64,000 nucleotides of DNA from Candidatus Latescibacterota bacterium (GCA_965197905.1 CBDAOB010000003.1:736001-800000), one strand, 5' to 3'; positions 2,635 through 49,897 are shown, counted from the first letter of the stretch. The notes: generated from the sequence alone by a model not told the origin. Numbers and translations: made by a program.

Positions 2635-2912
2635 TCGTGTGCCGCAAGCGGCATACCGCCTTGCGTATCGAATAAAAGCAGTTTATGCCGCTATCTTTCG
2701 GATGCCATCACGCCATTGCCGCTCCGCGATCTTAGACGCAGCCTTCGAAGCTTTTGACCGAACCTGACACAACGCAACTCGCTTGTGTATCTGAAAGACC
2801 CTCGCTATCTTTGCGGCATCCTGTGTATCCAGAATTATCACAACTCCCTCTGTCGCATCACAGTTCCCCCGTCACGCATGACACTTTCATTCCATTCTAC
2901 GGAGGAGAAGAA

Positions 2913-23008: not shown

Positions 23009-24754
23009 CTAAAGGAAAGAACTGCGCACCAGTCCCTCCTGCTCTTCCCATTGATGCAGGATGGAGCGGGACCGACGCAAATAGTGACGATAGCGGTCGT
23101 CGAGCAAGTTTTTCGACCTGTTTCCCAAGCGACCTCCAATCAGCGCATTGTATTTTCCCCGGGCTTGGGTAACGCGCCGGCCCTTTGGGTTGACGGCGAT
23201 CGTCATCAAGCGCTGTGAGTTGCCACTCCCGTCGGAGATCTGTAGGGAAAACACCGCCTTGGAGCCGCGCCGGCAGGTGTGCACGTAGGTCCGCACACAG
23301 TGATGCATCGCTTTGCCTTCTGCTACCAGCTCGTGGGTAGTGGTCACCTCCGAGATGGACCATGTGAGCATCTTGTCGGTCTCTTCGTCGTGCTCTGTGA
23401 CGGAAAGCTCACCCACGCCACAGGGTTGCCATTGATTCGAGGGGACCCGTTGATCTCGCACCAACCTCGCATGCCATTGTTCAACGTAGCGCAACAGCTT
23501 GTCCACGCTGCGACTCTTCATCGAGAGATTCGCTTGGAGAGGATCTTGTAACTCTATGCGCCCACCCGGCAAAACCACCTCCTGTCGTTCGAATTTCTGA
23601 TCCTGTATGTAGTCGACGATCGGTCCGATCCATTCGGGATCTAGCATGGGGTGTAACGTCAGCCAATGAATGAAAGTGGACCAGAAGGCCTCGTTCTCGA
23701 GTGATTCTCCAAGGCGGGTGGCGACCACTGCTTCGACCAATTCCTCGGATCCGTCCTGGCCAACGATCTGACCATAGCGCAACGCTTCGAACAGGGAGTA
23801 GCGATCCGGGGCAAGCAGAAACTCATGAGCCATTCGTTTTGTGAGGTTCACCGCGAGATCGGGGGCCGTCCGAATGTTGGCCCCCATACCCACGTGTATG
23901 AACCATCTCTGCTGCCGGTCCGTCTCCAGGGCATCCTCGGTCGGATCATGAAAGAAGGCGGTGTCGAAAAAGGCGGGCACGTGATACCTGGCCAGCAGAT
24001 GGCGGGCCAACGATCCGAACTGAAGGCGGGGATTGTGTCTCTCCGGTCGCCAATGGTCGGGACCGCGCAGCCAGTCCGCCTGCCGTCTGGCAAGAGCGGC
24101 CAGGCCGTCGATCCAGGTATTGCCCGTCCGGGCGCCAAAGCGGGTGATGGCTGGCGTTGAAACATCGAACAGATCCGCCCGCGACCGATCGACATCGAGC
24201 AGTAGGTCGCGAAACGCCTGGCGAACCGGCTGTTGATCGGACAACTGCCCGGCAATCTCCGCGATGCGGGCCATGTACTCGGGTCGCAGATCGTCCGTGG
24301 CAACCGAACCTTCGAAAATCCCGGTGATCGTATCCCGGGGTCGTCGGGTAATCCGGCGCACCTTGCGCAGAACCGCCTGGCTGGTCAGGACGCGTACCAT
24401 GTCCAGCTCTTTGCGTCGTGGACGGTCCCCTTTGTGCAGCGCGTCACTCAAATTCTGCTCCCGACACCAAGCCTGATAGGCCTGCGTCGAACCCAATCCC
24501 AAAGCTTTTACGTGGGCAAGAACCGCTTTGTCCGCCGCCGCCGCTTTAGCATCGCGTTTAACTGCGGCGCGCTCAACCCGGCGATCTTGCCAGCTCTTGT
24601 TGAGGGCAGCCGTAAAACCGTGCTCACGACACCAGTATTGATATTGGGCGACCGTCTGTAGTCCCAGAGACTCGATGTGATCGGTCAGATGAGCATTGGC
24701 CCGTGCCTGAGCACCCCGGCGACGACGTTTCCTTTTTTCGTTGGTCTTTGGCAT
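23009..24754 (-). CDS. PcfJ-like domain protein (paralogue 2)
   Basis: ELVAEGKAMHHCVRTY...LMTIAV...VTQARGKYN. Start MPKTNEK chosen by analogy with paralogue 1. Confidence 0.75.
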   Translation of the reverse strand: MPKTNEKRKRRRRGAQARANAHLTDHIESLGLQTVAQYQYWCREHGFTAALNKSWQDRRVERAAVKRDAKAAAADKAVLAHVKALGLGSTQAYQAWCREQNLSDALHKGDRPRRKELDMVRVLTSQAVLRKVRRITRRPRDTITGIFEGSVATDDLRPEYMARIAEIAGQLSDQQPVRQAFRDLLLDVDRSRADLFDVSTPAITRFGARTGNTWIDGLAALARRQADWLRGPDHWRPERHNPRLQFGSLARHLLARYHVPAFFDTAFFHDPTEDALETDRQQRWFIHVGMGANIRTAPDLAVNLTKRMAHEFLLAPDRYSLFEALRYGQIVGQDGSEELVEAVVATRLGESLENEAFWSTFIHWLTLHPMLDPEWIGPIVDYIQDQKFERQEVVLPGGRIELQDPLQANLSMKSRSVDKLLRYVEQWHARLVRDQRVPSNQWQPCGVGELSVTEHDEETDKMLTWSISEVTTTHELVAEGKAMHHCVRTYVHTCRRGSKAVFSLQISDGSGNSQRLMTIAVNPKGRRVTQARGKYNALIGGRLGNRSKNLLDDRYRHYLRRSRSILHQWEEQEGLVRSSFL

Positions 24755-24911
24755 CGAAATCGTTGATGGCGGTGTCCAGTCAATCTGCCTCTTCCGCGTG
24801 GTCAATGTCAAGCAGTAGCCTGACCCTCGAAGTTGACCCGGCCTTCCTTTTCGGTTTGATTGAAAACACATCTTCGGCTGTCGGCATTCCTTTTTGCAAA
24901 CTTGGGAAACA

Positions 24912-25940
24912 ATGGTAGAGATTGATGATGATCGTGAGGGGGAAGAGCCCGATATTCCCGTATTGCAAAAGGTGGGTATCGTCATGGTGGCCCTAGGTGA
25001 GGAGGTCTCGGGCGAAGTCATGAAGCACCTCAGCGACTACGAAATCGAAGAGATCACTCAGGCGATCGCCTCCCTCAAGAACATCTCTACCGAGTTGATA
25101 GACCAGGTTCTCGACGAGTTTGAGCAACACTTGATGGCCGGCGAGTGGATAGCTCAGGGCGGCATGGACTTCGCGCGTGCCGCTTTGGAACGCGCCGTGG
25201 GACCGCGACGGGCGCAGGAAATCCTTGAACGGGTCGGCAGCAAGGTCTCCTCCGGGTTCTACATTCTCAAGAATGTCGCATCGGACCAGATCGCCCCGTT
25301 TATTTCCAACGAGCACCCTCAAACCATTGCCCTGATTCTATCTCAGCTGGATTTTGCCCAGAGCGCCGGAATCCTGGCGCAACTTGCGGAGCGCCTGCAG
25401 GCGGATGTCGCCTACCGCCTGGCAACAATGGAGAATATTACGCCCAACGTCATCAAGGAGATCGAAGAAGCCCTCGAACAGTCCTTGAAGGATATTCTTG
25501 GCGGCGATCAGGACGTAGGCGGGCCGAAGGTGGTCGCGGACATACTGAATCTAACCGGTTCCAGCGTGGAAAAGAGTGTTCTCGATCAGATGGATGGTCA
25601 GGATCCGGAAGTGGCCGAAGCCGTCCGCAACCTCATGTTCGTTTTTGCCGACATCGTCAAACTGACCGATCGCGAAATTCAGACTCTGCTGCGGGAAGTC
25701 GATCAGAAGGACCTGGTTATCGCCTTGAAGACTGCCGAGGACGAACTCAAGGACAAGGTGCTGGGCAACATGTCCGAGCGCGTGCGCACCTTCGTAAACG
25801 AAGAGATGGAATTCCTCGGGCCGATGCGTGTAAGCGAGGTCGAAGAGGTTCAACTGAGAGTAGTGCAACAGGTCCGTCAGTTGGAGGAACAAGGTCAGGT
25901 TACGATCGTCCGCGGCGACTCCGAGGATGAGTTCGTATAG
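24912..25940 (+). CDS. fliG: Flagellar motor switch protein FliG homologue (orphan)
   Basis: EHPQTIALILS, GGPKVVADILN, MFVFADI, NMSER, E..GP.R..EVEE. Confidence 0.9.
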   Translation: MVEIDDDREGEEPDIPVLQKVGIVMVALGEEVSGEVMKHLSDYEIEEITQAIASLKNISTELIDQVLDEFEQHLMAGEWIAQGGMDFARAALERAVGPRRAQEILERVGSKVSSGFYILKNVASDQIAPFISNEHPQTIALILSQLDFAQSAGILAQLAERLQADVAYRLATMENITPNVIKEIEEALEQSLKDILGGDQDVGGPKVVADILNLTGSSVEKSVLDQMDGQDPEVAEAVRNLMFVFADIVKLTDREIQTLLREVDQKDLVIALKTAEDELKDKVLGNMSERVRTFVNEEMEFLGPMRVSEVEEVQLRVVQQVRQLEEQGQVTIVRGDSEDEFV

Positions 25941-29151: not shown

Positions 29152-29242
29152 GAGAATCTCCTCTCCCAACAATAAATCAACTGCCAAACGGTGGTTGGCA
29201 AATAATCATTACAACTTTCAAGCAGGTTCGCAATAGCAGACC

Positions 29243-29308
29243 TTGCCTTTGAGTCTCCTTAAGCGTATTATTCAACAATCTGGTTTTCTTTAGCGAACTA
29301 AATGGAGG
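29243..29308 (+). promoter_or_regulatory. Sigma70-type promoter and RBS of the fused RNAP gene
   Basis: TTGCCT (29243-48), 17 nt, TATTAT (29266-71). GGAGG at 29304-08; ATG at 29313. Confidence 0.65.
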
Positions 29309-29312
29309 TTCT

Positions 29313-32300
29313 ATGACTGTCGGGGAATGTGCAACCCATTCAAAGAGATCCGCAACGCTGCGGTTGGGTCCGCTGATGCGCTCGACCGCTGAGGAATTCG
29401 GATCAGCGTTGCGTCGAACCTTGATGCGCTTGCCGGGTCTGGCCGCACGCGCCGTGAAAATGGAGGCGGCTCACGAATTCTCTTTGCTCCCGGGGGTCGT
29501 CGAGGACGCGCTAGAGATCGTGGAGAATCTAAGATTGATCCAGTTCCGGGGTGGCGATGGACCGCACTACGTGACCATCGATGTGGAGGGGCCGGCTGCA
29601 GTGACCGGATCGGATCTGGCTGGTCCCGGACTGCAGGTGGTGAACCCGAATCAACCGATTGCCACGGTGAATCACGGTGGACGCCTCGAAATGAAGGTTG
29701 AGGTGGCTCTCTCGTTGGATCGGGAATCAGGCCGAGACCGTCGCACCGGGGGTTTCCTGGAGGTCGGCGGCGTCTCTCATCCCGTTACTCGGGTGCAGCT
29801 ACACGTGGAAGAGCGCGATAAAGGGGCGTTCTTGAGCTTGAGCGTGGCGACCAACGGAAGCGTCGAGCCCCGGGTGGCCATCGATCAGGCGGCAACTCTG
29901 CTAGCGTCAGTAGCGACAGGCGAAAGGACTCGGGCCCTCTGCCGCCAGGTTTTGAACGCAAAGACGTTGTCGGAGCCGGCGACTAAGGCGCCACCTCCGG
30001 TCCCGACAGCCCGTGACCTGAGCAAGATGCCACCGGGCATCGAAGTTCCAGACCTTACGGAGTTGTGCCACAGTTCGTTCGAATCCTTTGCACAGCGCGG
30101 GGTGGCACCCAGCCGGCGCCGAAACTCGGGGTTGCAACGATTGCTAAAAGAGGCCTTCGCGGTACAGGAGGAAGCCGAGTTCTCCAGCTACACCCTTAGC
30201 GAGCCGCACTCTGAACCCTCGGAATGTGTGAAATACGGTACGAGCTACCAAGCCGAGTTGACGGTTCGTCACAAGCGGAATGGTGCCCATACAGCCGAAG
30301 ATACGGTTGTGGGTCACCTACCCGTGATGACGGCTCGCGGAACCTTCGTGGTCTCTGGTGTGGAGAAGGTGGCGATGGGCGAGTTGGTGGACGCCTGCGC
30401 GAACAGGACCACGCGGGAGAACGATCTGGCCGAGCGCCGTATAAGGCTCGTAGGAGAGCAGCTGTTCGAGGCATTGGCCGGTGCTTTCGACAGTGCCACC
30501 GAGCAGGAGAATGAACTCCGATTTCCTTACTTCGCTGAAACCGTTAGTAGTTTTTTTACCGCAAATCCGTTGGTGCAACGAGCGGAGACCACAAACCCGC
30601 TGGCGCTCTTGACCCAGCTGCGCCGGGTGGTGCAAACGGATGTGGGTCGGCAACGGGGCTATCTGCCGCGCCAGATTCACCGGTCCCATTGGGGCCGTCT
30701 CTGCAGCATCGATACGCCGGAAGGGGAGCGGATCGGTCTGAATCTGACCGTGGCGGTCCTCGCAGGGGTAGACGAGGATGGCTTCCTTACCGCACCGTAC
30801 CGGCGTCGAACGGACGGCGATCTGGCGTATCTCAACGCCGCCGAGCAGGCGGCCACGACCGTCACCGACGGTTGCTGCTCGGATGGTGACCTGGTCGCCC
30901 GCTACGGCGGCAAGATTCTGGCGCTGAAAGCGGGCGAGATCGTGCGAACCGAGGAAGGTGATGTTGAGTACCTCACCACTCACTCGGCGCACACCCTGGG
31001 TCCTTCCGCCAGCCTCATTCCGTTTCTGGCCAACGACGATTCCAACCGTGCGTTGATGGGGAACAATATGCAAAAGCAGGCGCTGCCTCTGCTCCATCCT
31101 CAGGCTCCGATGGTGCGGACGGGAATGGAAGGCCGCGTCGCCACAGATGCGCGCGCCGCCGTTCTGGCGCCCGCTGAAGGGGTGGTTGAGCGGGTGTCGG
31201 CGGAAGAGATCGTCGTCCGCGGTCACGGCGAACACTCCTTTGGACTGGAAGGGTTTGTTCCCTCTGCCCTCAGTACCTGTCAACGGCAACGACCGTTGGT
31301 TCGACGCGGCCAGAGTGTCACCGCAGGTCAGGTCCTGGCGGACGGTCCTGCCACCGACCATGGAGATCTGGCGCTGGGTCGCAACGTCCTGGTCGGTTTC
31401 CTGCCGTGGGATGGGTTCAATTTCGAGGATGCTGTCGTTGTAAGTCAGCGACTGGTTGACGAAGAAGCGTTCACCTCAGTCAAGGTGAAGGAATACATCG
31501 ACGTGATCCGGAATACCGACACAGATCGCCTCTCCATCGGGATCGGCCACTTGCCACGCAGCACCGGTGACAACCTGTCTCCGTCCGGAATCGTACGCGA
31601 GGGAGCGTCGGTCGCGGGAGGCGATATTTTGGTCGCCAAGTCGACCTCCGGAGCGGAGAGGATCGACCGCTCGCTGCGCCTGCCGTCCGGGCATGCGGGC
31701 ACCGTAATCGGAGTCGATCATTTCATCGCGGACCAGGGCGACCCGTTGGCCGCGAATGTCGAGCAGCTCATCAAGATAAGGGTGGCTGTGCGCCGGCCAC
31801 TGAAGGTTGGGGACAAGCTGGCCAGTCGTCATGGCGCCAAGGGAGTGGTGGGATTGGTTCTTCCCGAAGACGAGATGCCGGTGTTGCCCGACGGAAGGGC
31901 GCTGGAGATGTTGGTGAGCCCGCTGGGATTGCCCAGCCGCATGAACTTCGGCCAGATCCTCGAAGCCCACACCGGCTTTGCTGCCCACGCGCTCAATTGC
32001 ACCGTCGAATCGCCCGGTTTCAACGGTGCCCTTGCCGAGGAGGTGGGTGGCCTCCTGGAAGAGGCCGGCCTGCCGCGCAGCGGCATGTTGCGGCTGCGCG
32101 ACGGGCGCACCGGACAGCTCTTCGAGCGCGAGACGACCGTCGGGTATATCTACTACATGAAGCTGCACCACATGGCCGAGGATCTGATCAAAACGAGGCC
32201 CGCCGGCCCAATGACCACGGAGGAAAACCCCGAGAAACCGCAGGGATATCGGCTGGGCATCATGGAAACCTGGGCTCTGCAAGCTCACGGCGCCGCACAC

Positions 32301-35066
32301 ATGTTGCGCGAGATGTCGACGGTACAAGGCGGGCAGGAGCAGGAGGTGACCTACGACGCCCTCGTGCACGGGGTTGATTTTCCGCCGCCCCAGCCGACCC
32401 AATCTATTGCCAGGCTTGCCAGGCAGCTGCGCGGGCTCTGCCTCGATCTCCAGCTGCACGACGCCGGCGGTCATCAAATCAGTCTGAAGGAAGCGGGAGA
32501 AGCGCCGGATCTGGATGCGATCGAGATGGCATCCGTAGAATTCGCAACATCGCAGACCGTCGATAGTTGGGGAATCGTAACCGAACTTCCGGACGCGACG
32601 GCAGTGGAAGCGTTTTTGCAGGGCGATGCCCGAGACGGTGTAGGTCTGATCCCGTTGGCCTGTCCGGTACTGCACCCCTGGCGAACCATGTTGCCCGCGG
32701 ATACGACGCCATCGGAGATTGCCAAGCTTCCAGTGCTGGCGCGATCCCTGAGGAATGGGCGCGCCCACGATTCGCTCTATCTGGCGCTGGCAGCCGTGAA
32801 CGACATCGTGCGGTCGGATGATACCTCCGACCACGAAATCCGCACGGCACTCCAGGAGGCGGTGGACGAGCTTTTCGGCGACGGCGGCGGCGGCGATGGC
32901 TTGAATCGATTGCTCTACGGGAAGCGTGGTTGGTTTGCCGCCGCAATGACCGGAACTAGGGTGGACTACTCGGGCAAGGCGGTCATCGCGCCAGGACCGA
33001 ACCTGCTCCAGGATGAATGCGGACTGCCGCGAAGAATGGCACGTTCTTTGTTCGCGCCATTCGTGGTCGGAGCCTTGTTGCGAGCCGGGAAAGCGAAGTC
33101 GGAAGAGGAGGCGCGCCGCATGATACGAGACGGGCGCGCCGAACGAGAGCTGGACGAGATTGCCTCGACGAAGCTGGTACTGCTACACCGGGCGCCGGTC
33201 CTGCACCGCTGGGGCATTCAAGCGTTCAAGCCGGTGTTGACCGAGGAGGAGGTTCTGCGGCTGCACCCGCTGACCAACGTGACCTTCAACGCCGACTTCG
33301 ACGGCGATGCGCTGGAGGTGTTCCTCCCTCTATCCGCTATCGCACAGCGCGAAGCGCAGGAGATGAGACCCACCAACAACCAGTTGGGCTCGGCCGACGG
33401 CACCTACATCCACGGCTTGAGCCAGGAGATGGTATTCGGTTGTTATTACGCGACCGCCGCGACCGCCACGGAGAAGCCGGTAATTGACCTCGCCAGCACG
33501 GACGCGGTGGCGGCCACCTTCGACCGCGGAGACGTGCGCATTCATGACCCGGTGAGAGTAATGGATGGGAGCTCACGCATTTCATCCGTGGGTCGCGTTT
33601 TGTTCGGTCAGCTGCTGCCGGATGGGTTGGAATGGACGGACGGGCAAGTCGACAAACGGGCACTGAAGGACCTGCTCGATCGGTGTTGGCACCAGTTGGG
33701 CCCCCCGTCTGCTGCCGAGCTGGCGAACGCAATGATGGTTTTCGGCTTTCGCATGGCAACCCGGTCAGGCGTATCGATCGGCAAAGACACCTATTCTCAG
33801 TTCAGCGGCTACGACGAGATGCTCGCCGCCGCGTGGCAGCGTGCGGACGAGCTCGCGGCCACCGACAACGACGAGCAAAGGATCGTCGATCACTGGATGG
33901 AAGTGCGTGATCGAATGACCGTGCAGGCGTTGGAAGAGCATGCCGCCATAGAGGACGGTCTCAATCCGACCCACATGATGGTTGTATCCGGAGCGCGGGG
34001 CAATTCGAATCAGCTGCTCCAGCAGATCGCCATGCGTGGTCTTTTTGTGCGCCAGGACGGTTCCCTTTATTCGATCCCATGTACGACCACCAACGTGCGG
34101 GGACAAAACCCGCTCGAGTTCCTTGCGGGGGTTGAAGGAGCACGCCGAGGTCTGGCGGATTGCACCTTGAAGGCTGCGCGCTCAGGATATCTCTTCAAGA
34201 GGATCGTCAGCTCGGTACAAGACGTGTTGATCACCGAGGAGAACTGCGGCACCGATGCCAGCCTGGAAAAACGGCCGCTCCGTGTGCGCCAGCGGGAAGT
34301 GCAAACGCTTGAGAACCGAATCGCCGGGCGGTTTGCCGCCGCCGATATCCTGTTTCCGGGAAGTAAAGCTCCGATCGTGGCGGCCGGGAACCTGATTGGC
34401 AGAGTTGAAGCTGCCGAGATTGGAGAAAGTGCCGTCGAGTCGGTTCTCGTTCGCTCGCCCATAACATGCGAATCCTCACGGGGCGTCTGCAGCAAATGTT
34501 ATGGGGTCGAGCTGAGCCGCTGGTCGCCGGCGACGGCCCACCTGCCGGTCGGTATCATCGCTGCCCAATCACTGGGCGAGCCGCTGACGCAGCTCACCAT
34601 GCGGTCGTTCACCTTGTCGATGCAGGGACAGCCTCCATCTGCAAACATCATCGCCAGCCTACCTGGACTGGAGGATTTGTTCGAGGCGGGCAAAAGACCC
34701 GGGAAGGAAGCATCGGAACTGCGAACCGCTCTGGTCGAGATGCTGGAGAAGGAAGGTTCGGGGTGCGCAGGAGCCTACCTTCTGGACGCGGTGCTCCTGC
34801 ACTATCGCAACATGGGAGTTCCCCTCGACGACAGACACCTGGAGATCGTCATCCGTCGGATGGTCCGTAGCGACGGGATCGACAGTGGACCGACTATCAG
34901 GGGCGTGACTGAAGTTGCGCGTCAGGGCAACGACTTCATGACGGCGGCGGTTTCCTTCGATGGAGTAGCCGCGCTGGCGCGGGCGGCCGCCAGCAGCCAA
35001 CGGATGCACCTGGATGGTGTGAGCAGCAGCACCGCTTTCGGCAAGCTTATGCCTGCAAGGGTCTAG
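29313..35066 (+). CDS. Single-chain minimal RNA polymerase: alpha-NTD + reduced beta + reduced beta' fusion (1917 aa)
   Basis: Alpha: ALRRTL, HEFSLLPGVVED, VVNPNQPIAT, TNGSVEP. Beta: TPEG..IGL, LIPFL..DD.NRALMG.NMQ.QA, NFED, GDKLASRHGAKG, PSRMN.GQ, KLHH. Beta': RVDYSG, RAPVLHR, NADFDGD, SGARG, GARRGLAD, GEPLTQLTMR. Confidence 0.95.
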   Translation: MTVGECATHSKRSATLRLGPLMRSTAEEFGSALRRTLMRLPGLAARAVKMEAAHEFSLLPGVVEDALEIVENLRLIQFRGGDGPHYVTIDVEGPAAVTGSDLAGPGLQVVNPNQPIATVNHGGRLEMKVEVALSLDRESGRDRRTGGFLEVGGVSHPVTRVQLHVEERDKGAFLSLSVATNGSVEPRVAIDQAATLLASVATGERTRALCRQVLNAKTLSEPATKAPPPVPTARDLSKMPPGIEVPDLTELCHSSFESFAQRGVAPSRRRNSGLQRLLKEAFAVQEEAEFSSYTLSEPHSEPSECVKYGTSYQAELTVRHKRNGAHTAEDTVVGHLPVMTARGTFVVSGVEKVAMGELVDACANRTTRENDLAERRIRLVGEQLFEALAGAFDSATEQENELRFPYFAETVSSFFTANPLVQRAETTNPLALLTQLRRVVQTDVGRQRGYLPRQIHRSHWGRLCSIDTPEGERIGLNLTVAVLAGVDEDGFLTAPYRRRTDGDLAYLNAAEQAATTVTDGCCSDGDLVARYGGKILALKAGEIVRTEEGDVEYLTTHSAHTLGPSASLIPFLANDDSNRALMGNNMQKQALPLLHPQAPMVRTGMEGRVATDARAAVLAPAEGVVERVSAEEIVVRGHGEHSFGLEGFVPSALSTCQRQRPLVRRGQSVTAGQVLADGPATDHGDLALGRNVLVGFLPWDGFNFEDAVVVSQRLVDEEAFTSVKVKEYIDVIRNTDTDRLSIGIGHLPRSTGDNLSPSGIVREGASVAGGDILVAKSTSGAERIDRSLRLPSGHAGTVIGVDHFIADQGDPLAANVEQLIKIRVAVRRPLKVGDKLASRHGAKGVVGLVLPEDEMPVLPDGRALEMLVSPLGLPSRMNFGQILEAHTGFAAHALNCTVESPGFNGALAEEVGGLLEEAGLPRSGMLRLRDGRTGQLFERETTVGYIYYMKLHHMAEDLIKTRPAGPMTTEENPEKPQGYRLGIMETWALQAHGAAHMLREMSTVQGGQEQEVTYDALVHGVDFPPPQPTQSIARLARQLRGLCLDLQLHDAGGHQISLKEAGEAPDLDAIEMASVEFATSQTVDSWGIVTELPDATAVEAFLQGDARDGVGLIPLACPVLHPWRTMLPADTTPSEIAKLPVLARSLRNGRAHDSLYLALAAVNDIVRSDDTSDHEIRTALQEAVDELFGDGGGGDGLNRLLYGKRGWFAAAMTGTRVDYSGKAVIAPGPNLLQDECGLPRRMARSLFAPFVVGALLRAGKAKSEEEARRMIRDGRAERELDEIASTKLVLLHRAPVLHRWGIQAFKPVLTEEEVLRLHPLTNVTFNADFDGDALEVFLPLSAIAQREAQEMRPTNNQLGSADGTYIHGLSQEMVFGCYYATAATATEKPVIDLASTDAVAATFDRGDVRIHDPVRVMDGSSRISSVGRVLFGQLLPDGLEWTDGQVDKRALKDLLDRCWHQLGPPSAAELANAMMVFGFRMATRSGVSIGKDTYSQFSGYDEMLAAAWQRADELAATDNDEQRIVDHWMEVRDRMTVQALEEHAAIEDGLNPTHMMVVSGARGNSNQLLQQIAMRGLFVRQDGSLYSIPCTTTNVRGQNPLEFLAGVEGARRGLADCTLKAARSGYLFKRIVSSVQDVLITEENCGTDASLEKRPLRVRQREVQTLENRIAGRFAAADILFPGSKAPIVAAGNLIGRVEAAEIGESAVESVLVRSPITCESSRGVCSKCYGVELSRWSPATAHLPVGIIAAQSLGEPLTQLTMRSFTLSMQGQPPSANIIASLPGLEDLFEAGKRPGKEASELRTALVEMLEKEGSGCAGAYLLDAVLLHYRNMGVPLDDRHLEIVIRRMVRSDGIDSGPTIRGVTEVARQGNDFMTAAVSFDGVAALARAAASSQRMHLDGVSSSTAFGKLMPARV

Positions 35067-41677: not shown

Positions 41678-44600
41678 TCATTTTACCAACAGCAAGCGGC
41701 TCGTTCTCACATCGCGACCGGTCGATAACTGATACATGTAGATACCCGTTGCCACCGCTCGTCCGGCGTCGTCGGTACCGTCCCAGGTTATAGAGTGGTG
41801 GCCGGACCTTTCCGCCGCGGCGACGATGTGTCGAATCCGTTGCCCCGTCACGTTGTAGATGGAGAATTCGACGGGACTCGCCTCGGGAAGATGGTAGTTT
41901 ATTACGGTTTGCGCGTTGAACGGATTCGGAAAGTTCGGGAAGAGCGTCAAGACCTCGGGTAGCGCTTGTCCATCGGCCGCTATCGACATAGGCAGCTCGG
42001 GATACGACACTTGCAGTTGCCGGTTTGCCTTCAGGTCGGTGCGGATGCTCTCGCGCCCATCCGGCCAGACGATGCGCAACGTGTCAACTCGAGTCCCGGC
42101 GCCCAAGCCGAAGTGAATCTCGAGAGGCGCCTGGCTGCCGTATCCGAATCCGGGATGCAGCTCTTTGTACTGTCGCCCTTCCTGCGTAACCAGTAAGATC
42201 TGGGCGCCCAGTGCGTCTCGATTACCGCCGATCCCGATGAGGTCCAGCTGCAGCCAGCGGCTCTCTTCCAACTCGCTGCGATACAAACGACTCGACACCG
42301 CGTCGGCAACCAGCAGATCTTGATCGCCATCTCCGTCGAAATCGGCAACGCTGAGGCCGCGCCCGGCCGATTCCTTCTCGAGGCCGGAAAAACCACCCAG
42401 CGATCTCCACCCGTCGGAACCGTTGTTGTACAACTGGTCTCCGCCGTTTGCAGAGCCCACTCCCGTAGTGATCAGATCGAGATCGCCGTCGTTGTCGGTA
42501 TCGACGAAAGCGGCGCCGGCACACGAGGTTCCCAGCTTCCCCGGTCTCTCCTCAGTGACCCAGTTGAAACCCGTTCCGTCCAGATTCTTGAACAGCCGAT
42601 TGTCTGACGTTTCCCCGGTGGTGAAAAGGTCGACAAATCCATCCCCGTCGTAGTCGCCGAAGACACCGGCCACGTCGTCGTTGGAAAACGGCACTCCCAA
42701 TTCCTCGCCGACCTCGGTAAACTGCCCGGTGTCATTCCGGTAGAGCCGGCTTGGACCGTTCCTGTTCGCCACCAGAACGTCAGCATCGCCATCGCGATCG
42801 AAGTCGCCGAAAGACAGACCGCGACCGTCTCCGGTATCGTTCAATCCCTTCTGTGCTGCCATATCGACAAAAGCTGTCCCGTCGTTGCGAAACAATCGAT
42901 TGGTATCCGGGCTGGCGTTTACCAGGAACAGATCCAGATCGCCATCGGCATCGGCATCCCAGAAACCGGCGCTGCGGCCGGAACCATCATCTCCCAATGA
43001 ACCGCCTTCACCGCCGACAAACTGCGTGGTTACGTCCGTGAACTGGGAATCTTCGTTGCGCAACAACCGATTGGCCTGGCCCTGGCGGACGAGATACAGA
43101 TCCAGATCGCCGTCGCCGTCGTAATCGCCCACGGCGAACCCGCGACCCACACCCTCGTCTGCAAGACCTACCTCTGCATCGACCAGACGAAATGCATCGC
43201 CGTCGTTGCGCAACAGCTGATCCTCATCTCCCTGTCGCACGAGCAGAAAATCGAGATCGTTGTCGCCGTCAAAGTCGAAGAATCCGGCGCCGTTACTGTT
43301 GTTCAGATCCGCTTCGATCTCCACCGTCGAATAGGTAACCGGCACCTCCACCAGTTCGAGGGGCCGCGGATCGAGAAAGGTCGCCAAACTCTCGAATGAC
43401 GTCGATATACCGAATTGCAGTTCATAATTCCCACCTGCTAGCCCTGAGACCGACGGAAATTCGATCTCTCTGTCGGTAAATGGCACCAGCGGCGGCTGCT
43501 GTTGTTGGTAAGAAGCTACCACTCGGCCGTCCCGCAAAATCCGGTATTCCACCGGGAAGGGCTGGGACTTTCCATTACCACCGTTGGATACCAGAAGTCG
43601 AGGAACTACATCGCTCGCGGCCGCCGCCGACTCGGGAGCCAACACCGATTTGATCTCCAGACGCGGTTTCACTTCAGCTTCCACATCTCCCATGAGGAAG
43701 GTGATCTGATCGCCGAGGAAGCGCTGTCGGCTTTCCGACAACGTCCGCGGAAGATCAAGACCGACGAATATGGTGCGAAAGCGACCGGCATCGAATCGCA
43801 CCGCGGCGACGCGCCCCAACGTGTCCTGCAAAATCGATTCCGTGCCGTCGTTAGGCCGGACAGAGGCGAAGTTTATGCTGCCGTCGGCCCGATCCCCTGT
43901 CACAGACTCGAACGCACCGAAACCTGCGCGGGTTAGCTGCGGTGCAATCCCCAGGATATTGCTTCGGAATTCGCCTCCAGTTGGAGAATACGCCATGTAC
44001 GGAGTCGCCAGGAGTATCCTCCCTCCCTGGTGTGCGAACTCCTCGACGAAGTTTTGTTCTAATTCGTTGATTCTCGGCATCAGCCATATCACGAATTTAC
44101 CCGCGCCGATGTAGTGCCGTAGGAGGAGGTCGTAGAGTGATTTATCGGATAGATCCGAACTCTTGTTCAACACGTTCGCTTCCAAACCCCTTTTTTCCAG
44201 GATCGAGCGGAGGTCGTCGACTAGCGGGGCACCCTTTTTTAGATGTTTGTCGATGATCAGAACGGGACTCCACCGGGTGAAGTTCACCGCTTCCACGGTC
44301 AGTAGTCGGGACCCCATGAGCCGGCGTCCGTTTTTGTCGCGCACGCGAGCCACGATCTTGTAGTTGCCGGGCGCCGGGGGATTGAACTTGATTTGGAACA
44401 GGCGGTGATCTTTGTCCTCGCTTCGTACTAGAGGAAGCACGAGCCCGCCCGGGGCACCGCCTCCTCGGCGAGAAAAGGCGGATCCACGCACCAGCAGCTC
44501 GACCGATTCCACTGCCGCCGTCGTCGTCACCTGTAGCAAGATTGAATCGCCGTGCAGGACGAGAGCCCCATCATTGCGAATGATTGTCCCTGGAATCTCC

Positions 44601-47600
44601 ATTTCCATCTCTTGACGGAGACTCTGATTCAGCAGTGGAATGGCATTCGCGACGATTTCGCCTATATCTGGCAAACGCGCCACGTCGAAGGCGAGGAACA
44701 CCGCCCGGTAGCCACCTGCATCCACGTGTACTCCTGCCGCATTGCCGGTCGTACTCAGGATCAGCGGGATAGCGTGTTCGTGGGGGACCAGCTTGCGATG
44801 GGTGATCCTTGCCCCCTGGCTCAAAAACGTTCCCGCGCTGTCGGAGAACACAGACTCGAGTTGCTTCTCTTCGTAGTTGCCGGCTGTTGTGTGCAGGTAG
44901 GTCTCGACGAATTCGGCAAAGCTGTGCGGAGAGCCGCCTTTCGAACCAAGGAACAATCGTCCGTGGCGATCGAGGAACTTCTGCAGAATTTCTGGCACGC
45001 CGTTCGCCCCGAACATCCCGAGCCAGAAGAGCGCCTTGTTTTCTCCGGCGTAGCTTAGAATCAACTCTTCGTACAGCCTTTTGTCCCTCTCGGGGTAATC
45101 GATGATGTCGGCGGAGGTATTGTTCTTGGACATCGCATGCACGATCTCCTCCCGCAAGAAAGACCGGATGCGTCCCGAAATCGATTGGTTGACGAAGACC
45201 AGGTTTGGTCGATCCATGAGCCGCAGAACCTGACGTCGGGCCGAGCTGGGCATACTGTTTCCCTGTTCATCAAAAATGCGTGCTGAATAGAGGAAGTGGC
45301 CCGATTCGGGGACCCGTACCGATCCCGTAAATCCGCCCCCTGCTTTTCGAGCCAATGGTACGGTCTCGACGAGGGCCATGGTCGGCAGCAGACGCACCTC
45401 AAGCTCGGAACGGACAACCTCTTCCGGTGCGTGGATATGAACCGTGGGTGCTTCGGACCCCTTCAGCAATACTGACTCCCCGACCAGTTCGTCCGTTTCA
45501 AACTCCAGCGCGACGTCTGATATATTCTCGGAGGTTAGATACGCCAACCCCGATTCGAGGAGGGAACGGGTTATGTAGGCGTCTAGCGGACCGAGATCGA
45601 AAGGGAAATAGATCATGCGGAAGGTGCCCGTGTCGACCCGCATTGCCGCGGCGTTGGAGGTGGCGTCATACAGCATCGGTTCAGCGGGATCTAAGAGCAT
45701 CAGGGACGAGTAGCTCGAGTTGAACGGATCCGATGACTGCAGGTCCAGCCCGGTAATCATGCTCGTCCTTCGAGACGATTGCTGCTGAATGTGCAACACC
45801 TCCCTCCCGAATGTTCCCCATGACCGTTGCCTGGAGGAGATCATCATCCGGCCCCCTTGCTCGAGGAATGAACGCATATGGATTCGTGCCTCCCGGCTGA
45901 TCTTCTCACCCATCCATAGCACCGTTCCACCGGTGCGAGCGAACGCGGGCAACAGAACCTCGTAAAGCTCGCCTTCCTCTGGTGCACCATCGATCATGTA
46001 GTGAGACTGACCCCGGGCGGTCATAACCTGGTCGAGGATTTCGACCAGGTTAGCACGGCTCTCTTCGTCTATCTCCTTGCTCACGAAGGTCAGTACTTCC
46101 GCCTCGCCAGATGTCCTCCCTAAGAGGAGCGTCGAGTCGGCGAAAGTTGCGTACCCATTCTGACCGTAGACCCGGACGAAAATTTCGTAGAAACCCTCGT
46201 ACTCGGGAGGAATCGAAGCTTCAAAAATATGGGCATCGCCTTGCATACCGAGCTTCTCCATCGATACGGTCAACACGTGATCGTGTTCTTGGAGGGTACG
46301 TATCATCAGATCCGCCTGGGAGATCTCGCCCTGCACCAAGGCTCGCACAGGAGTCGCAACTCCGCGTGGCACAACTGCTGCGCGGCCGAGGATTTCGTGG
46401 CCGGGGACTTCGAAGTCGACATCGTTTTCCGGGTATTCGCCCTCGACGACGAGCTTCAGGGTGTCCCGTTTTATCTGCGCGAACGCTGCGTTGTAGCTCG
46501 CGTAGATCTGGCGCCCGTATTCCACCACGATCTCGATCTCGGTGCCTGGCTCCGCTTCCCGGCTCACTCTCAGCGGGATAACCTCGACGTGGCTCTTACC
46601 GGGATCCAGATCGAACGATTCTTCGACCCTCAGCGTTTTGGATCGCGGCGTCCAGTTTCCGCGCTCCCATGCGGGCTCGATGAATTCCGAGTCCCAGCGT
46701 AAGGTGGGTCGCAGACGCTTGAAGTTCCGTAGGGTCCAATTGTCAAGGGTCAATTCCAGCTGGATGGTCTCTCCAGGATTGAGGCGCCCGTCGCCATTTC
46801 CCGCCGTATCAAAGGTCGGGGTGTCCACCAGGTCGAGATTGAAGTCCAGCATCAGTTCCAACAAACCGGAGGGAGCGCGCTGAAACACGAAACCGTGGAG
46901 AACCCCGTCGAGCACGATATTCGACGATGAAACCTCGATGCGGCTCGAGTCCGCCGGATCGATGAGGATTCCGTACCAGCTGTCTCCCAGCTGCATCGAT
47001 TTGAAGAAAACATCCGACTTTGAATGGTCACCGACGATCAGGTCGCCGTTGATCTCCAGCTCCGACAGGTTGGGATCCACTCCACCGCGCATCCGGTCGC
47101 TTCCCGACATGCGTACATTCGTCTCCCCGTGGATGTGCAGCTCGCCGTCGACCGCTACGCGCACATCTCCGTCGACTACGACATCGCCCGCCCAATCCAC
47201 CCGTTCATTGATGATGCCTGCCCAGCGGGGTTGGGTTACGTCGACGATCATGGTTGTGCCCCTGCGATTCATATCGAGGCTCAGACCTGTTGTGGCCGCC
47301 GAGGAGTGCCCCCACGGGTTGTTCGAAGGGTTGGAAAACTGATCCAATCGCTTCGCCTTCACGCCGTCGAAAGGGTCGGTGGCGTCGCCGAAGTTACCCC
47401 CGTTCAGCTGTGAATACGCGGTGTCATGGGCCCAATAATCGAGATTGTCGCGACCGAAACGACCATCCGGAAGGCGGCCTTTTGGGAATCCTGAATCGGC
47501 GTACAGACCGTCGGCACAGACCAGGTCCAAGGTCTTGGCGGTTTCGTCAGCGTTTCCCCACAATTGAGGTCGGACGTGCCAGACCAAGAGGCCTTCTCCG

Positions 47601-48709
47601 GGGATGTTCCGTCGGTAGAACGAACTCGACCGGGTCACTTGCTCGAGCAGGAGATACTCCTGGGTGGCGGAGCGGTCGCCCCTGGCAACCATACGCAGCG
47701 GAATCTTAAAGATGCTACCTCCGGAAAGGCGATCGGACACCTCCAGGCCGGTCGCATCCGTTTCAACCTCAATCAGCTGCTGATTGTCCACCCCGATCCA
47801 GCCGAGGAGCTCCAGACTGCGGGCGCTGAAGGGCGCGGGCCCGTCTTGACCGGTCCATCCGTGGGCACCCCATCCCATCAATCCCCAACGGCCGATGCCG
47901 GCGCTGTCCTCTTCAGGTGTGCCAAAAGCCCGGTCGTATAAGTCGGGGAGTCCCAGCCGGTGTCCGAACTCGTGGGCCATGGAACCAACCGTCTGGGCGT
48001 AGTTCCCCTCCTGCTGCAAGGCCCCATGCCTGATGGATCCGGCGATGGCGACCGTGCCGCCCTTGGCGGCAGCGTCATCGCTGTCGAGCATGAGCGAACC
48101 GAGGTTCGCAATGCCCGTGGCGCCTCCCGTAATGAATCCGCGAGGGGTGGACAGGGTGTTGACGAAGATGTAGTCGACGAACCCATCATCGTCACCGGAG
48201 TTCGGAACGCCATCCTCGCCGTCGTTGTCGAATTGCGACATGTCGACGTCCCGGTCGACCTGGGCCAAAATCTCGGCCAGGAATTCGTCATATTTGCCGT
48301 ATCGCGACGGGTCGTGCACCACGTATGCCGAAGCAGGGCGATCGGAGCTGTACCGTTTGGGCAGCACGCTACCATTGACCGTGAGCCGCGCACCGGACAT
48401 CTCGCTGAAAAAGTGAGAAAAGCTTCCTGGAAGATTCTCGTCGAAAAGCTTGCTGGCGAAGGGCGGCGCCGTCTGAATCTGTGGCGCCTCATTCTTGAAT
48501 TTCGCGTAGACGACGAGGACATTGACAGTTCCCGTCGTGTGTGACAAGGTCATCTTCGCCACCGCGCCGGCAGGTAGCGGCGGAGACTCGTATCCCGAAC
48601 AGACGAATTCTTGCGCGGCAAGCGGTACGGACGTACTGAGGCCCAGGAGGAGGGGGAGAATCCTTGGGGTGCATTTAAGATGCTCCAGTTTCCGTAAAGT
48701 ACCCAACAT
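41678..48709 (-). CDS. Giant secreted M6-family metalloprotease with internal repeats, FG-GAP/ASPIC region and FlgD-Ig tail
   Basis: HEFGHRLGLPDLY, WGLMG, repeated GDYDGDGDLDLY, IHFGLG..IVWPDG, NFPNPFN..WDGTDDAGR..TGIY. The ATG at 48709 has a GGAG RBS. Confidence 0.88.
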   Translation of the reverse strand: MLGTLRKLEHLKCTPRILPLLLGLSTSVPLAAQEFVCSGYESPPLPAGAVAKMTLSHTTGTVNVLVVYAKFKNEAPQIQTAPPFASKLFDENLPGSFSHFFSEMSGARLTVNGSVLPKRYSSDRPASAYVVHDPSRYGKYDEFLAEILAQVDRDVDMSQFDNDGEDGVPNSGDDDGFVDYIFVNTLSTPRGFITGGATGIANLGSLMLDSDDAAAKGGTVAIAGSIRHGALQQEGNYAQTVGSMAHEFGHRLGLPDLYDRAFGTPEEDSAGIGRWGLMGWGAHGWTGQDGPAPFSARSLELLGWIGVDNQQLIEVETDATGLEVSDRLSGGSIFKIPLRMVARGDRSATQEYLLLEQVTRSSSFYRRNIPGEGLLVWHVRPQLWGNADETAKTLDLVCADGLYADSGFPKGRLPDGRFGRDNLDYWAHDTAYSQLNGGNFGDATDPFDGVKAKRLDQFSNPSNNPWGHSSAATTGLSLDMNRRGTTMIVDVTQPRWAGIINERVDWAGDVVVDGDVRVAVDGELHIHGETNVRMSGSDRMRGGVDPNLSELEINGDLIVGDHSKSDVFFKSMQLGDSWYGILIDPADSSRIEVSSSNIVLDGVLHGFVFQRAPSGLLELMLDFNLDLVDTPTFDTAGNGDGRLNPGETIQLELTLDNWTLRNFKRLRPTLRWDSEFIEPAWERGNWTPRSKTLRVEESFDLDPGKSHVEVIPLRVSREAEPGTEIEIVVEYGRQIYASYNAAFAQIKRDTLKLVVEGEYPENDVDFEVPGHEILGRAAVVPRGVATPVRALVQGEISQADLMIRTLQEHDHVLTVSMEKLGMQGDAHIFEASIPPEYEGFYEIFVRVYGQNGYATFADSTLLLGRTSGEAEVLTFVSKEIDEESRANLVEILDQVMTARGQSHYMIDGAPEEGELYEVLLPAFARTGGTVLWMGEKISREARIHMRSFLEQGGRMMISSRQRSWGTFGREVLHIQQQSSRRTSMITGLDLQSSDPFNSSYSSLMLLDPAEPMLYDATSNAAAMRVDTGTFRMIYFPFDLGPLDAYITRSLLESGLAYLTSENISDVALEFETDELVGESVLLKGSEAPTVHIHAPEEVVRSELEVRLLPTMALVETVPLARKAGGGFTGSVRVPESGHFLYSARIFDEQGNSMPSSARRQVLRLMDRPNLVFVNQSISGRIRSFLREEIVHAMSKNNTSADIIDYPERDKRLYEELILSYAGENKALFWLGMFGANGVPEILQKFLDRHGRLFLGSKGGSPHSFAEFVETYLHTTAGNYEEKQLESVFSDSAGTFLSQGARITHRKLVPHEHAIPLILSTTGNAAGVHVDAGGYRAVFLAFDVARLPDIGEIVANAIPLLNQSLRQEMEMEIPGTIIRNDGALVLHGDSILLQVTTTAAVESVELLVRGSAFSRRGGGAPGGLVLPLVRSEDKDHRLFQIKFNPPAPGNYKIVARVRDKNGRRLMGSRLLTVEAVNFTRWSPVLIIDKHLKKGAPLVDDLRSILEKRGLEANVLNKSSDLSDKSLYDLLLRHYIGAGKFVIWLMPRINELEQNFVEEFAHQGGRILLATPYMAYSPTGGEFRSNILGIAPQLTRAGFGAFESVTGDRADGSINFASVRPNDGTESILQDTLGRVAAVRFDAGRFRTIFVGLDLPRTLSESRQRFLGDQITFLMGDVEAEVKPRLEIKSVLAPESAAAASDVVPRLLVSNGGNGKSQPFPVEYRILRDGRVVASYQQQQPPLVPFTDREIEFPSVSGLAGGNYELQFGISTSFESLATFLDPRPLELVEVPVTYSTVEIEADLNNSNGAGFFDFDGDNDLDFLLVRQGDEDQLLRNDGDAFRLVDAEVGLADEGVGRGFAVGDYDGDGDLDLYLVRQGQANRLLRNEDSQFTDVTTQFVGGEGGSLGDDGSGRSAGFWDADADGDLDLFLVNASPDTNRLFRNDGTAFVDMAAQKGLNDTGDGRGLSFGDFDRDGDADVLVANRNGPSRLYRNDTGQFTEVGEELGVPFSNDDVAGVFGDYDGDGFVDLFTTGETSDNRLFKNLDGTGFNWVTEERPGKLGTSCAGAAFVDTDNDGDLDLITTGVGSANGGDQLYNNGSDGWRSLGGFSGLEKESAGRGLSVADFDGDGDQDLLVADAVSSRLYRSELEESRWLQLDLIGIGGNRDALGAQILLVTQEGRQYKELHPGFGYGSQAPLEIHFGLGAGTRVDTLRIVWPDGRESIRTDLKANRQLQVSYPELPMSIAADGQALPEVLTLFPNFPNPFNAQTVINYHLPEASPVEFSIYNVTGQRIRHIVAAAERSGHHSITWDGTDDAGRAVATGIYMYQLSTGRDVRTSRLLLVK

Positions 48710-48838
48710 TTTGTACTCCGTCTGTTTGCGGAACACAGTGTCTTGGGGAGACCTGAGGTTCAACGGTCGCTCATCCACAACGCGGATGGCGGTGGGACAG
48801 GAGAAAAGAGTCGTGGGGGAAGTTCGAGTATATCCAAT

Positions 48839-49027: not shown

Positions 49028-49897
49028 ATGAACTTGATTACCGTGACAGAGAGATTCCCGACGCAAGAATCCTGCATTGCTCATCTGGAGCGGATACGCT
49101 TCGGCGATGAGCCCTTTTGCCCCTTGTGCGGCACGGTCGGGGAATGCGCCCGCAAGAAGCAGGGGAATGTAATCGGGCGTTGGAACTGTCACGCTTGCAA
49201 ATCCAGCTTCAATGTCTTATCCCAGACCATGTTTCAAGGCACGCATCTTCCCTTGCAAAAGTGGTTCTGCGCCATCGCCCTGATCGTGAACGCCAAGAAA
49301 AGCCTGTCCAGTTGCCAGCTCGGGCGTGACTTGAACCTGAATCAGCGGTCCGCCTGGTACATGCAACAGCGCATCCGGGCTGAAATGGCTACCAAGCAGG
49401 GAAGAATCAGGTTAACTGGACTCATCGAAGCCGACGAGACCTACGTCGGCGGACGCCCCAGGAAGCGCAACAGGCGCGACGACGACAAACCCAACCTCAG
49501 AGGACGGGGAACGCGCAAGACCGCGGTTATCGGCGCTGTGGAGCGCTCAGGGAAGGTTGTGGCTCAGGTCGCCGACGATCTCTCCGCTAAGGGCGTGCTC
49601 GAGTTTATCAAACGTGCCATCAATCCTGACGCCTCGACGTTGGTCACGGACGAATATGGGGCCTACAACGTAGTGCGGCGGATCATGGATCACTGCGTGA
49701 TTCAGCATTCCAAGCGTTATGTTGATGGCACGATTCACACGAACACGATCGAAGGCGTGTGGTCTTTGCTCAAGCGGGCGTGGTATGGATCGCATCATCA
49801 CTACACGCCGCTTTACGTGGCCGAGGCTTGTTTCAAGTACAATCACCGCGACGACGACAACGCCTTCGGTTCTTTCCTACAAGGGTGCTTCAAGTAA
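49028..49897 (+). CDS. IS1595-family DDE transposase
   Basis: Zn ribbon CPLC..CHAC, EADETYVGG, VTDE, HTNTIEGVWSLLKR. Confidence 0.95.
   Translation: MNLITVTERFPTQESCIAHLERIRFGDEPFCPLCGTVGECARKKQGNVIGRWNCHACKSSFNVLSQTMFQGTHLPLQKWFCAIALIVNAKKSLSSCQLGRDLNLNQRSAWYMQQRIRAEMATKQGRIRLTGLIEADETYVGGRPRKRNRRDDDKPNLRGRGTRKTAVIGAVERSGKVVAQVADDLSAKGVLEFIKRAINPDASTLVTDEYGAYNVVRRIMDHCVIQHSKRYVDGTIHTNTIEGVWSLLKRAWYGSHHHYTPLYVAEACFKYNHRDDDNAFGSFLQGCFK

Follow-up and report, generated by a model that had tools for sequence, protein, structure and literature searches.

The window analysed here is a stretch of 64,000 nucleotides from a Candidatus Latescibacterota bacterium (GCA_965197905.1 CBDAOB010000003.1:736001-800000), whose 6.69-Mb genome is referred to as G000. 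It encodes a single-chain RNA polymerase paralogue (P0001), in which one α amino-terminal domain (α-NTD), β, and β′ are fused in one open reading frame (ORF). The protein is a descendant of the bacterial α, β, and β′ subunits, and it is accessory, coexisting with the canonical RNA polymerase genes; intact rpoB, rpoC, and rpoA are found amid ribosomal genes on contig C5 at 2.19-2.21 Mb, while the polymerase gene, unlike these, lies outside the ribosomal superoperon. An earlier note on this DNA had described the range 30339-34920 as a polymerase without its downstream DNA-gripping modules; the ORF begins about 1 kb earlier, and the N-terminal α-NTD had been missed. The parts of the gene are listed below. 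The housekeeping subunits of E. coli and G000 served as alignment references for the deletions, E. coli provides the residue numbering, the naming of domains, and the roles given for several residues, and window coordinates of the parts were derived by hand from residue numbers. Fractions of 24 refer to the family sequences, the self match P0002 and the partial sequences P0024 and P0027 being excluded.

29313-35066, plus strand: gene of the single-chain α-NTD/β/β′ paralogue, 1917 amino acids, free of internal stops
29313-29960, plus strand: one α-NTD with an extra helix, no carboxy-terminal domain (α-CTD) (Pfam, alignment)
30006-32462, plus strand: β part (Pfam; the model folds like β)
30387-30422, plus strand: 12-residue linker (amino acids 359-370 of the fusion) in place of the β lobe, E. 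coli β 154-443, net -288 (24/24)
30636-30665, plus strand: fork loop 2, 4-5 residues shorter (9-10 versus 14, 24/24), with adjacent rifamycin-pocket positions altered
31407-32171, plus strand: β barrel with equivalents of E813, D814, K1065, K1073, R1106, and H1237 (each 24/24)
31641-31661, plus strand: linker in place of the flap-tip helix (9-24 versus 32 residues)
32451-32522, plus strand: β-β′ fusion joint (alignment)
32586-32639, plus strand: linker in place of the β′ zinc-binding domain, four Cys absent (short in 23/24; one with a longer unrelated filler)
32682-32726, plus strand: 15-residue linker (amino acids 1124-1138) in place of the clamp head (24/24)
32739-32900, plus strand: reduced lid and rudder, shorter clamp helices, R275 absent from 24/24 (alignment)
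32919-32978, plus strand: switch 2, with K334 and R/K352 kept, R337 replaced by W, and R339 by A/T (alignment)
33288-33308, plus strand: catalytic loop, N458 and aspartate triad D460/D462/D464 (24/24)
34137-34223, plus strand: bridge helix, full length (alignment)
34575-34685, plus strand: trigger helices, with Q929, R933, and F935 in 24/24, sequence insertion 3 (SI3) deleted, H936 replaced by Thr (alignment)
34689-34730, plus strand: linker in place of the jaw (24/24)
34869-34895, plus strand: 9-residue linker (amino acids 1853-1861) in place of β′ 1269-1304, net -34, with Glu at the K1311 position next to it (15/24)

In the Pfam search, RpoA domains (PF01000/PF01193, matching the α-NTD) are followed by β domains 3, 6, and 7 and by β′ domains 2-5, and β domains 1-2 and β′ domain 1 were not found. 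The protein remains under the NCBIfam cut-offs for rpoB, rpoC, and rpoA (639/801, 486/964, and 94/228 bits, resp.). An assembly artefact was rejected, as independent contigs of the runs X1, X3, and X6 (three studies, X1 possibly being the source sample) span the deletion junctions free of gaps. The gene is chromosomal and host-like in its G+C content at third codon positions (0.715 versus 0.705 for rpoB); the locus is syntenic in a sister species (locus L001), and close relatives are named Latescibacterota.

The four in-frame deletions of the earlier note are borne out by the alignments and by the contigs across the junctions, as are their sizes, namely linkers of about 12 and 15 residues for lobe and clamp head, the missing jaw, and a last linker of about 9 residues. 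In the window polymerase, the clamp-head region β′ 115-243 amounts to 18 residues versus 129 in E. coli, and the jaw region β′ 1147-1241 to 40 versus 95. These deletions are not traits of the lineage, because the housekeeping subunits of G000 retain all four regions (lobe, clamp head, jaw, and fourth region with 240, 128, 94, and 48 residues, resp.). As traits of the family, the first three hold throughout: the lobe region comprises 10-13 residues versus 297, the clamp head 16-24 versus 129, and the jaw 39-45 versus 95 (24/24 each). The fourth does not, being present in 15 of the 24 and scattered across several tree branches; it therefore either recurs or is optional. The earlier list of losses was also too short, since the flap tip, the zinc-binding domain (10-21 residues versus 59 in 23/24), the lid (11-12 versus 22), the rudder (7-13 versus 24, both 24/24), part of fork loop 2, SI3, and the α-CTD are gone as well. 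The β inserts i9 and i11 are likewise absent; these vary among ordinary bacteria, and the host's own β also lacks i11. Judged from the alignments, the polymerase has lost the surfaces that would grip duplex DNA and those on which a sigma factor would dock.

The whole catalytic core is retained. Invariant in all 24 sequences are, on the β′ side, N458, D460, D462, D464, R425 (presumably the ribose-selecting residue), P427, R731, Q929, R933, and four zinc-binding cysteines and, on the β side, R678, N684, Q688, E813, D814, K1065, K1073, R1106, and H1237; this invariance spans family sequences that are merely 43-50% identical. Two double-psi barrels are present, one with the aspartate triad and the other with two lysines, as is characteristic of the two-barrel superfamily. 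The residues that contact the template close to the active site persist as well (K334 and R/K352 in 24/24, β R1269 in 21/24, bridge-helix A791 in 23/24), and so are the template-side positions aromatic 795, A426, and P427. The sole exception among the catalytic and nucleoside triphosphate (NTP)-binding residues checked is the trigger-loop residue H936, which is His in 7 of the 24.

Residues of the cleft are altered throughout the family. R339 of switch 2 is Ala or Thr and never Arg (0/24), and R337 is Trp in all 24 sequences. Both are counted as template contacts and R339 is called absolutely conserved (PMC2943606). In the rifamycin pocket, the substitutions Q513R (21/24), H526Q (19/24), and S531V (21/24) are found, β N568 is R or K in 21/24, and Arg occupies the column of β 542 in 16/24. 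The K1311 position is acidic in 22/24 and R1330 is Arg in 1/24; we take these two residues to have a downstream-DNA role, which the literature search did not confirm. In the α-NTD, R45, presumably β-binding as in E. coli, is kept in 14 of 15 sequences, while the R191 loop and F35, T38, L228, and F231, which we take to be dimer-face residues, are changed.

Residues 225-1396 were modelled by AlphaFold with a 47-row alignment as input. The model reached a mean predicted local distance difference test score (pLDDT) of 80, with 76-89 across the linkers of lobe and clamp head and low values at fork loop 2 and switch 3, and it matches β subunits with a best Foldseek template modelling (TM) score of 0.64. 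It shows a plausible fold and says nothing on function. A single-sequence fold was discarded (pLDDT 35).

The polymerase is under purifying selection. Compared with the sister species (83% identity), the ratio of nonsynonymous to synonymous substitution rates (dN/dS) is 0.226 (dN 0.094, dS 0.418), versus 0.045 for rpoB, 0.023 for rpoC, and 0.04-0.28 for seven neighbour genes. Twenty-one distant family pairs gave 0.13-0.51, at dS near or beyond saturation. The argument of the earlier note for selection rather than decay is upheld by these ratios, none of the values near 1 that it had named as refutation being found, and by the invariant catalytic residues.

In the homologue search, 120 of 334 matches were listed, and among those listed at least 22 clusters beside the query's own form the family, at 43-86% identity, together with one fragment; some cluster members are in pieces, for which assembly errors may be responsible. 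Within the phylum, the polymerase occurs in 4 of 168 genomes (G000, G098, G150, and G154), and it was not found in G097 of the same genus, which is 89% complete. No family member was seen in IMG/VR or among the ten best plasmid and phage matches, all of which are at the level of ordinary rpoC, and ESM Atlas returned solely generic fused-polymerase clusters, below 0.9. Both trees, which are quick and without a secure root and may suffer from long-branch attraction, set the family apart by a branch whose Shimodaira-Hasegawa-like approximate likelihood ratio test (SH-aLRT) value is 100, with α-less members nested within the family; the concatenated tree of 32 rows splits 12 canonical enzymes (100) from all α-fused single-chain forms plus the odd fusion P0282. 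P0025, P0026, P0029, P0150, P0151, and P0171 are single-chain α-β-β′ fusions of 1950-2440 amino acids with fewer losses. At least three of these less-reduced fusions carry a second minimal α-like segment where the window polymerase has its single α-NTD with altered dimer face, and P0026 ends in an α-CTD. Because P0025, P0026, P0029, P0150, and P0151 are intermediates that keep subsets of the lost parts, a stepwise reduction after fusion is suggested.

The region upstream of the gene contains the following elements.

29225-29242, no strand assigned: operator copy 1, an 18-bp palindrome of consensus RGTTYKC-W4-GMRAACY that abuts the -35 hexamer (identical in the sister species)
29243-29271, plus strand: sigma-70-type promoter-like site with 17-bp spacer, 9/12 consensus (1 found versus 0.2 expected; both hexamers kept in L001)
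29282-29299, no strand assigned: operator copy 2, 57 bp after copy 1 and just 3′ of the -10 hexamer (matrix scan)
29304-29308, plus strand: ribosome-binding site 5′ of the start codon (sequence; kept in L001)

In the window and at L001, L011, and L018, two copies of the palindrome flank a sigma-70-type promoter at a spacing of 57-58 bp; L015 has one copy. A matrix built solely from nine sites at polymerase promoters was used to scan the 6.69 Mb of G000 and gave 92 sites with scores of at least 10, among which two pairs are spaced by 50-65 bp, both at 57 bp. One pair is that of the polymerase promoter, which belongs to the training set; the other lies at the promoter of an operon on contig C1 encoding an XRE protein and an M78 peptidase (G000:C1:112606-113933, corresponding to L056:12607-13934, minus strand), where a possible weak third site was noted. 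Single high scores are not rare in shuffled-column controls (11 sites above 16 in the genome versus 1-54 in ten controls); it is therefore the pairing that carries weight. In an independent test on 14 XRE orthologues, matrix scores are at least 17 upstream of 12 and at most 10.7 downstream, the background being 3 of 5252 upstream windows with at least 17, one of these the training promoter. A strict operator pattern has 20 sites in 12 of the 14 genomes, 18 of them at promoters of XRE or polymerase genes, versus 0 in the control, a count that is not independent because the pattern was built partly from these sites. Two exact lone sites, in G101 and G158, have no clear target, and seven one-mismatch candidates (G000, G098, G101, G102, and G104) were rejected as intragenic-looking or without a consistent target.

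PADLOC assigns the XRE-peptidase pair to capH (E 1.7e-14) and capP (E 1.7e-20). The best PDB matches of the XRE protein are DdrO, aligned over residues 2-129 and thus nearly full length (E 3e-11), and chain 7t5u_A; in the peptidase, the HExxH motif is intact in 14/14 orthologues. All four polymerase-bearing genomes fall among the 14 with an XRE orthologue; they are kin and hence not independent. A regulatory link was seen at 9/9 loci, several of which are kin: a peptidase within 1.5 kb in five, an operator plus an unlinked pair in three, and an operator only in one (L011). The polymerase promoter is probably under a CapH/CapP-like switch, with the repressor site of CapH/CapP-type operons present as a predicted sequence feature. 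Control by analogy with the homologues would mean repressor cleavage stimulated by single-stranded DNA (ssDNA) and induction by damage. Three α-less members carry a different set directly 3′ of the polymerase gene, an extracytoplasmic function (ECF) sigma factor, an ORF of 123-142 amino acids without Pfam match, and a CapP-like peptidase (L012:5299-7277, L013:5670-7709, and L014:8470-10507); this is possibly a sigma/anti-sigma switch freed by proteolysis. The palindromic operator was not seen at these three loci, L012 having less than 100 bases of upstream DNA.

SOS control was rejected, since the LexA-box pattern has 68 matches in the genome versus 85 in the control and occurs at neither recA nor at the two matches of the LexA helix-turn-helix (HTH) domain; operator copy 1 fits what we take to be the Geobacter LexA-box pattern, which is unenriched in the genome. 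G000 has two recA genes, and the operator was not seen upstream of either. Each of the LexA-HTH matches (C5:2561274 and C5:1444547) falls within an open frame about 105 amino acids long; the first looks frameshifted, be it by assembly error or as a pseudogene.

The polymerase is read as a sigma-independent, templated enzyme that is induced by ssDNA and synthesizes short RNA where DNA is open beforehand, its role probably being defence, a reading to which a probability of roughly 0.4 is assigned. The XRE protein would occupy both operators and block the sigma-70 promoter. ssDNA arising from damage or phage replication would activate the peptidase, which would cleave the repressor so that the polymerase is made. 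Without sigma factor or bubble opening, the enzyme would load on open DNA such as gaps, forks, or phage replication intermediates and form short templated RNA or RNA:DNA hybrids at low speed and low processivity. Its purpose would most likely be that of a defence or stress effector obstructing invader DNA or draining NTPs rather than gene expression. Put more fully, and somewhat more tentatively, it may be an immune or damage effector, a one-chain, sigma-free polymerase under an ssDNA-sensing protease switch that places RNA onto exposed ssDNA and represents the end of a stepwise-reduced α-β-β′ series. Catalysis, expression, and repressor binding and cleavage are predictions throughout, and a defence role is proposed, with the regulators matching capH and capP.

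Several published observations are in line with this reading. An E. coli RNA polymerase that lacks the lobe cannot escape from promoters properly, a defect that is relieved when the downstream DNA has been melted beforehand (PMC3632114). With the R339A exchange, melting of downstream DNA is impaired, open complexes as well as elongation complexes become less stable, and the enzyme is stimulated by a primer (PMC2943606), and an archaeal mutant in the switch-2 Arg was reported inactive on downstream duplex (PMC2241882). CapP is activated by ssDNA, CapP and IrrE-type peptidases cleave repressors when given ssDNA, and CapH/CapP operons are mostly known or putative defence systems (10.1101/2022.04.27.489752; PMC13228613). 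Since loss of the lobe and of R339 would block duplex opening and the switch is of the ssDNA type, the enzyme would be made when DNA is already open and would synthesize short RNA without sigma. A cleft unsuited to hold and open downstream duplex is likewise supported, beyond what the earlier note had seen, by the exchanges at R339, R337, and K1311, and the link to an ssDNA-sensing type of peptidase fits; the short products that the note proposed are plausible in the light of the mutant studies.

A number of points weigh against the proposed role. Loss of H936 could, we presume, mean slow or negligible catalysis. The window neighbours of the polymerase are metabolic and transport genes with no defence island, and no PADLOC model matches the polymerase. 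The peptidase matches IrrE structures weakly (E 0.07-0.11), and the XRE-peptidase pair occurs without a polymerase match in 10 of the 14 genomes, including the near-complete G101, G102, and G104, so that it is not dedicated to the polymerase everywhere. YonO lacks most conserved domains, yet is processive and DNA-dependent (PMC5467207); the clamp-less gp96 transcribes phage genes; and the enzyme of yeast virus-like elements (VLE), without most of clamp, lid, and rudder, yet serves duplex elements, while lid-less enzymes are reportedly hurt more on ssDNA than on duplex DNA (PMC6211774). Archaeal enzymes with deletions in lid, rudder, or fork 2 gave no longer products on an ssDNA template, and lid and rudder mutants reached about 40 nucleotides given downstream duplex (PMC2241882). 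E. coli R339A supports growth (PMC2943606). The step in the earlier note from lost modules to a template other than duplex DNA is unsafe by itself, because three enzymes with losses at least as large, namely YonO, P23-45 gp96 without its clamp, and the polymerase of the yeast VLE, do transcribe genes; its interpretation overall is supported in part.

For the same reason, a stress-induced backup or specialist polymerase, transcribing duplex DNA by means of a partner (a helicase or a dedicated sigma) or of compensating changes, keeps a place as an unlikely but serious alternative, as YonO, gp96, and the VLE enzyme pair large losses with gene transcription. It would account for the ECF sigma directly 3′ of the gene in 3 of 9 loci (a third RNA polymerase-like gene, described below, adjoins an ECF sigma in 21 of 30), for the substitutions in the rifamycin pocket, and for the retained Arg at the β 542 column. 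Jaw, lobe, flap tip, zinc domain, α-CTD, and rifamycin pocket are targets of phage inhibitors and rifamycins, with which the lost surfaces coincide. The missing flap tip, the shortened clamp helices, and the loss of R275 speak against such a role, and no sigma or helicase gene lies beside the polymerase in the window or at five other α-bearing loci. For the L012-L014 sigma, which may be a peptidase-released regulator, tblastn gave no match in G000; a complex prediction of the L013 sigma with the polymerase clamp region scored 0.00, uninformative either way. In contrast to YonO, moreover, this enzyme started out from a complete bacterial scaffold and shows no visible substitutes for the parts that it lost.

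A role in repair, in which primase-like repriming or RNA patches on gaps would follow damage as part of a DdrO/IrrE response, shares the open-template chemistry and is rather improbable. The near full-length alignment of the XRE protein to DdrO and the host-like, syntenic chromosomal locus would suit it; the presence in only 4 of 168 genomes and the negative result for G097 would not, and no repair gene was found in the operator regulon. Patchy spread and a regulon of two operons resemble CapH/CapP more closely than a global DdrO repair regulon.

That the enzyme copies or extends RNA is quite improbable: a widened cleft could accept A-form templates, yet the linked type of sensor answers to ssDNA, an Rfam scan of the window gave zero matches, and no partner RNA was seen. 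Template-independent nucleotide addition, also contemplated in the earlier note, or production of short signal oligonucleotides is even more doubtful. CapH and CapP are best known from CBASS operons, whose enzymes make nucleotide signals, and the remodelled RNA-side pocket (N568 to R/K, Q513R) might limit product length; the template contacts and template-side positions listed above are kept, however, and no receptor or effector gene is linked. A non-catalytic decoy for RNA polymerase-binding proteins or a decaying duplicate, to which a dN/dS 5-10 times that of rpoB and rpoC, the lost H936, and the fragmented cluster members could point, is the least credible, given the invariant active site, a dN/dS inside the neighbour-gene range, and the loss of binding surfaces that a decoy would retain.

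The place of the single-chain polymerase among known systems can be outlined. With bacterial RpoA/RpoB/RpoC, including natural full-length RpoBC fusions, it shares the fold (30-45% identity in matched stretches), the full active site, bridge helix, trigger helices, and structural zinc; it differs in being one chain with one α-NTD, in lacking lobe, flap tip, zinc-binding domain, clamp head, lid, rudder, and jaw, and in the state of R339 and H936. YonO of SPbeta and P23-45 gp64/gp96 are similar as single chains with reduced periphery and aspartate triad; they are deeply diverged, phage-borne enzymes of gene expression, whereas the present polymerase is chromosomal and clearly RpoABC-derived. YonO-like enzymes are recognised by homology in few barrel residues and by phage location, and here homology to RpoA/B/C is extensive. 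The yeast VLE (killer plasmid) polymerase descends from a multisubunit enzyme and has similarly shed most of its clamp, lid, and rudder; it belongs to a eukaryotic, poxvirus-related element, has helicase and capping enzyme partners, and is without the rim helices kept here. In Nocardia and Nonomuraea, a duplicate, rifamycin-resistant rpoB also provides a second RNA polymerase gene with an altered rifamycin pocket, and its near full-length β joins a normal core.

With CapH/CapP-type operons, the locus has in common an XRE repressor and M78 HExxH peptidase pair and conserved sites around the regulated promoter. The known layout, with the pair upstream and divergent, is seen in G154; the pair adjoins the gene in tandem at L015 and is unlinked in G000, G098, and G150, where the regulator would act through a common operator. 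The regulated gene, an RNA polymerase paralogue, was not seen among the operons listed in the section consulted of 10.1101/2022.04.27.489752. The literature search, with most subscription papers outside its scope, retrieved no description of such a polymerase paralogue, which is thus apparently undescribed.

The third RNA polymerase-like gene of G000 encodes a mini β-β′ fusion of 1019 amino acids (G000:C5:903587-906646, corresponding to L017:7588-10647, minus strand). Like the window polymerase, this type is fused and has the aspartate triad (30/30 loci) and apparently the same lobe junction; unlike it, the enzyme has about 1020 amino acids, no α, and no trigger loop, is commoner (65/168 phylum genomes), goes with a sigma, and forms a separate long tree branch. 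Its dN/dS is 0.14. It overlaps an upstream ECF sigma gene (L017:10608-11204); the count of 21 in 30 loci given above holds within the flank available. A file of the ECF reclassification supplement (PMC7826278, this one file) does not mention Rpb domains. The mini polymerase with ECF sigma is, to our knowledge, not a published family.

Elsewhere in the window, two similar-looking PcfJ-like proteins are encoded at 23009-25021 and 3711-5315 (both minus strand), PF14284 being confirmed by Pfam for the first. An orphan FliG-like gene (by eye; 24894-25940, plus strand) is highly conserved, with a dN/dS of 0.04, and no further flagellar gene was noticed near it. ORFs at 22-2675 (plus strand) resemble, by eye, a ubiquitin-like E1/ThiF protein and an uncharacterised upstream partner and could be a bacterial ubiquitin-type system clipped by the window edge. 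At 41678-48778 (minus strand), a secreted-type protein of 2366 amino acids was recognised by eye, which combines FG-GAP-like repeats and an HExxH metalloprotease region with a sorting-type domain at the C terminus; an IS1595-like transposase (by eye; 49028-49897, plus strand) adjoins it in a low-GC patch. Outside the window, L011:6620-6760, 5′ of the polymerase gene of that locus, holds what looks by eye like the tail of an integron-type integrase.

Summarizing, the textbook view is that of one RNA polymerase core per bacterium, and here a conserved, chromosomal second core is found in one polypeptide, apparently under damage-type control. The family amounts to a natural deletion experiment on the need for lobe, clamp head, jaw, lid, rudder, R339, and H936, and, as a single gene that is easy to express, it makes questions about a minimal bacterial-type core and about assembly with a single α testable. 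If the proposed role is true, the polymerase would represent a new class of inducible effector derived from a cellular RNA polymerase, and RNA synthesis may be revealed as an output of defence.

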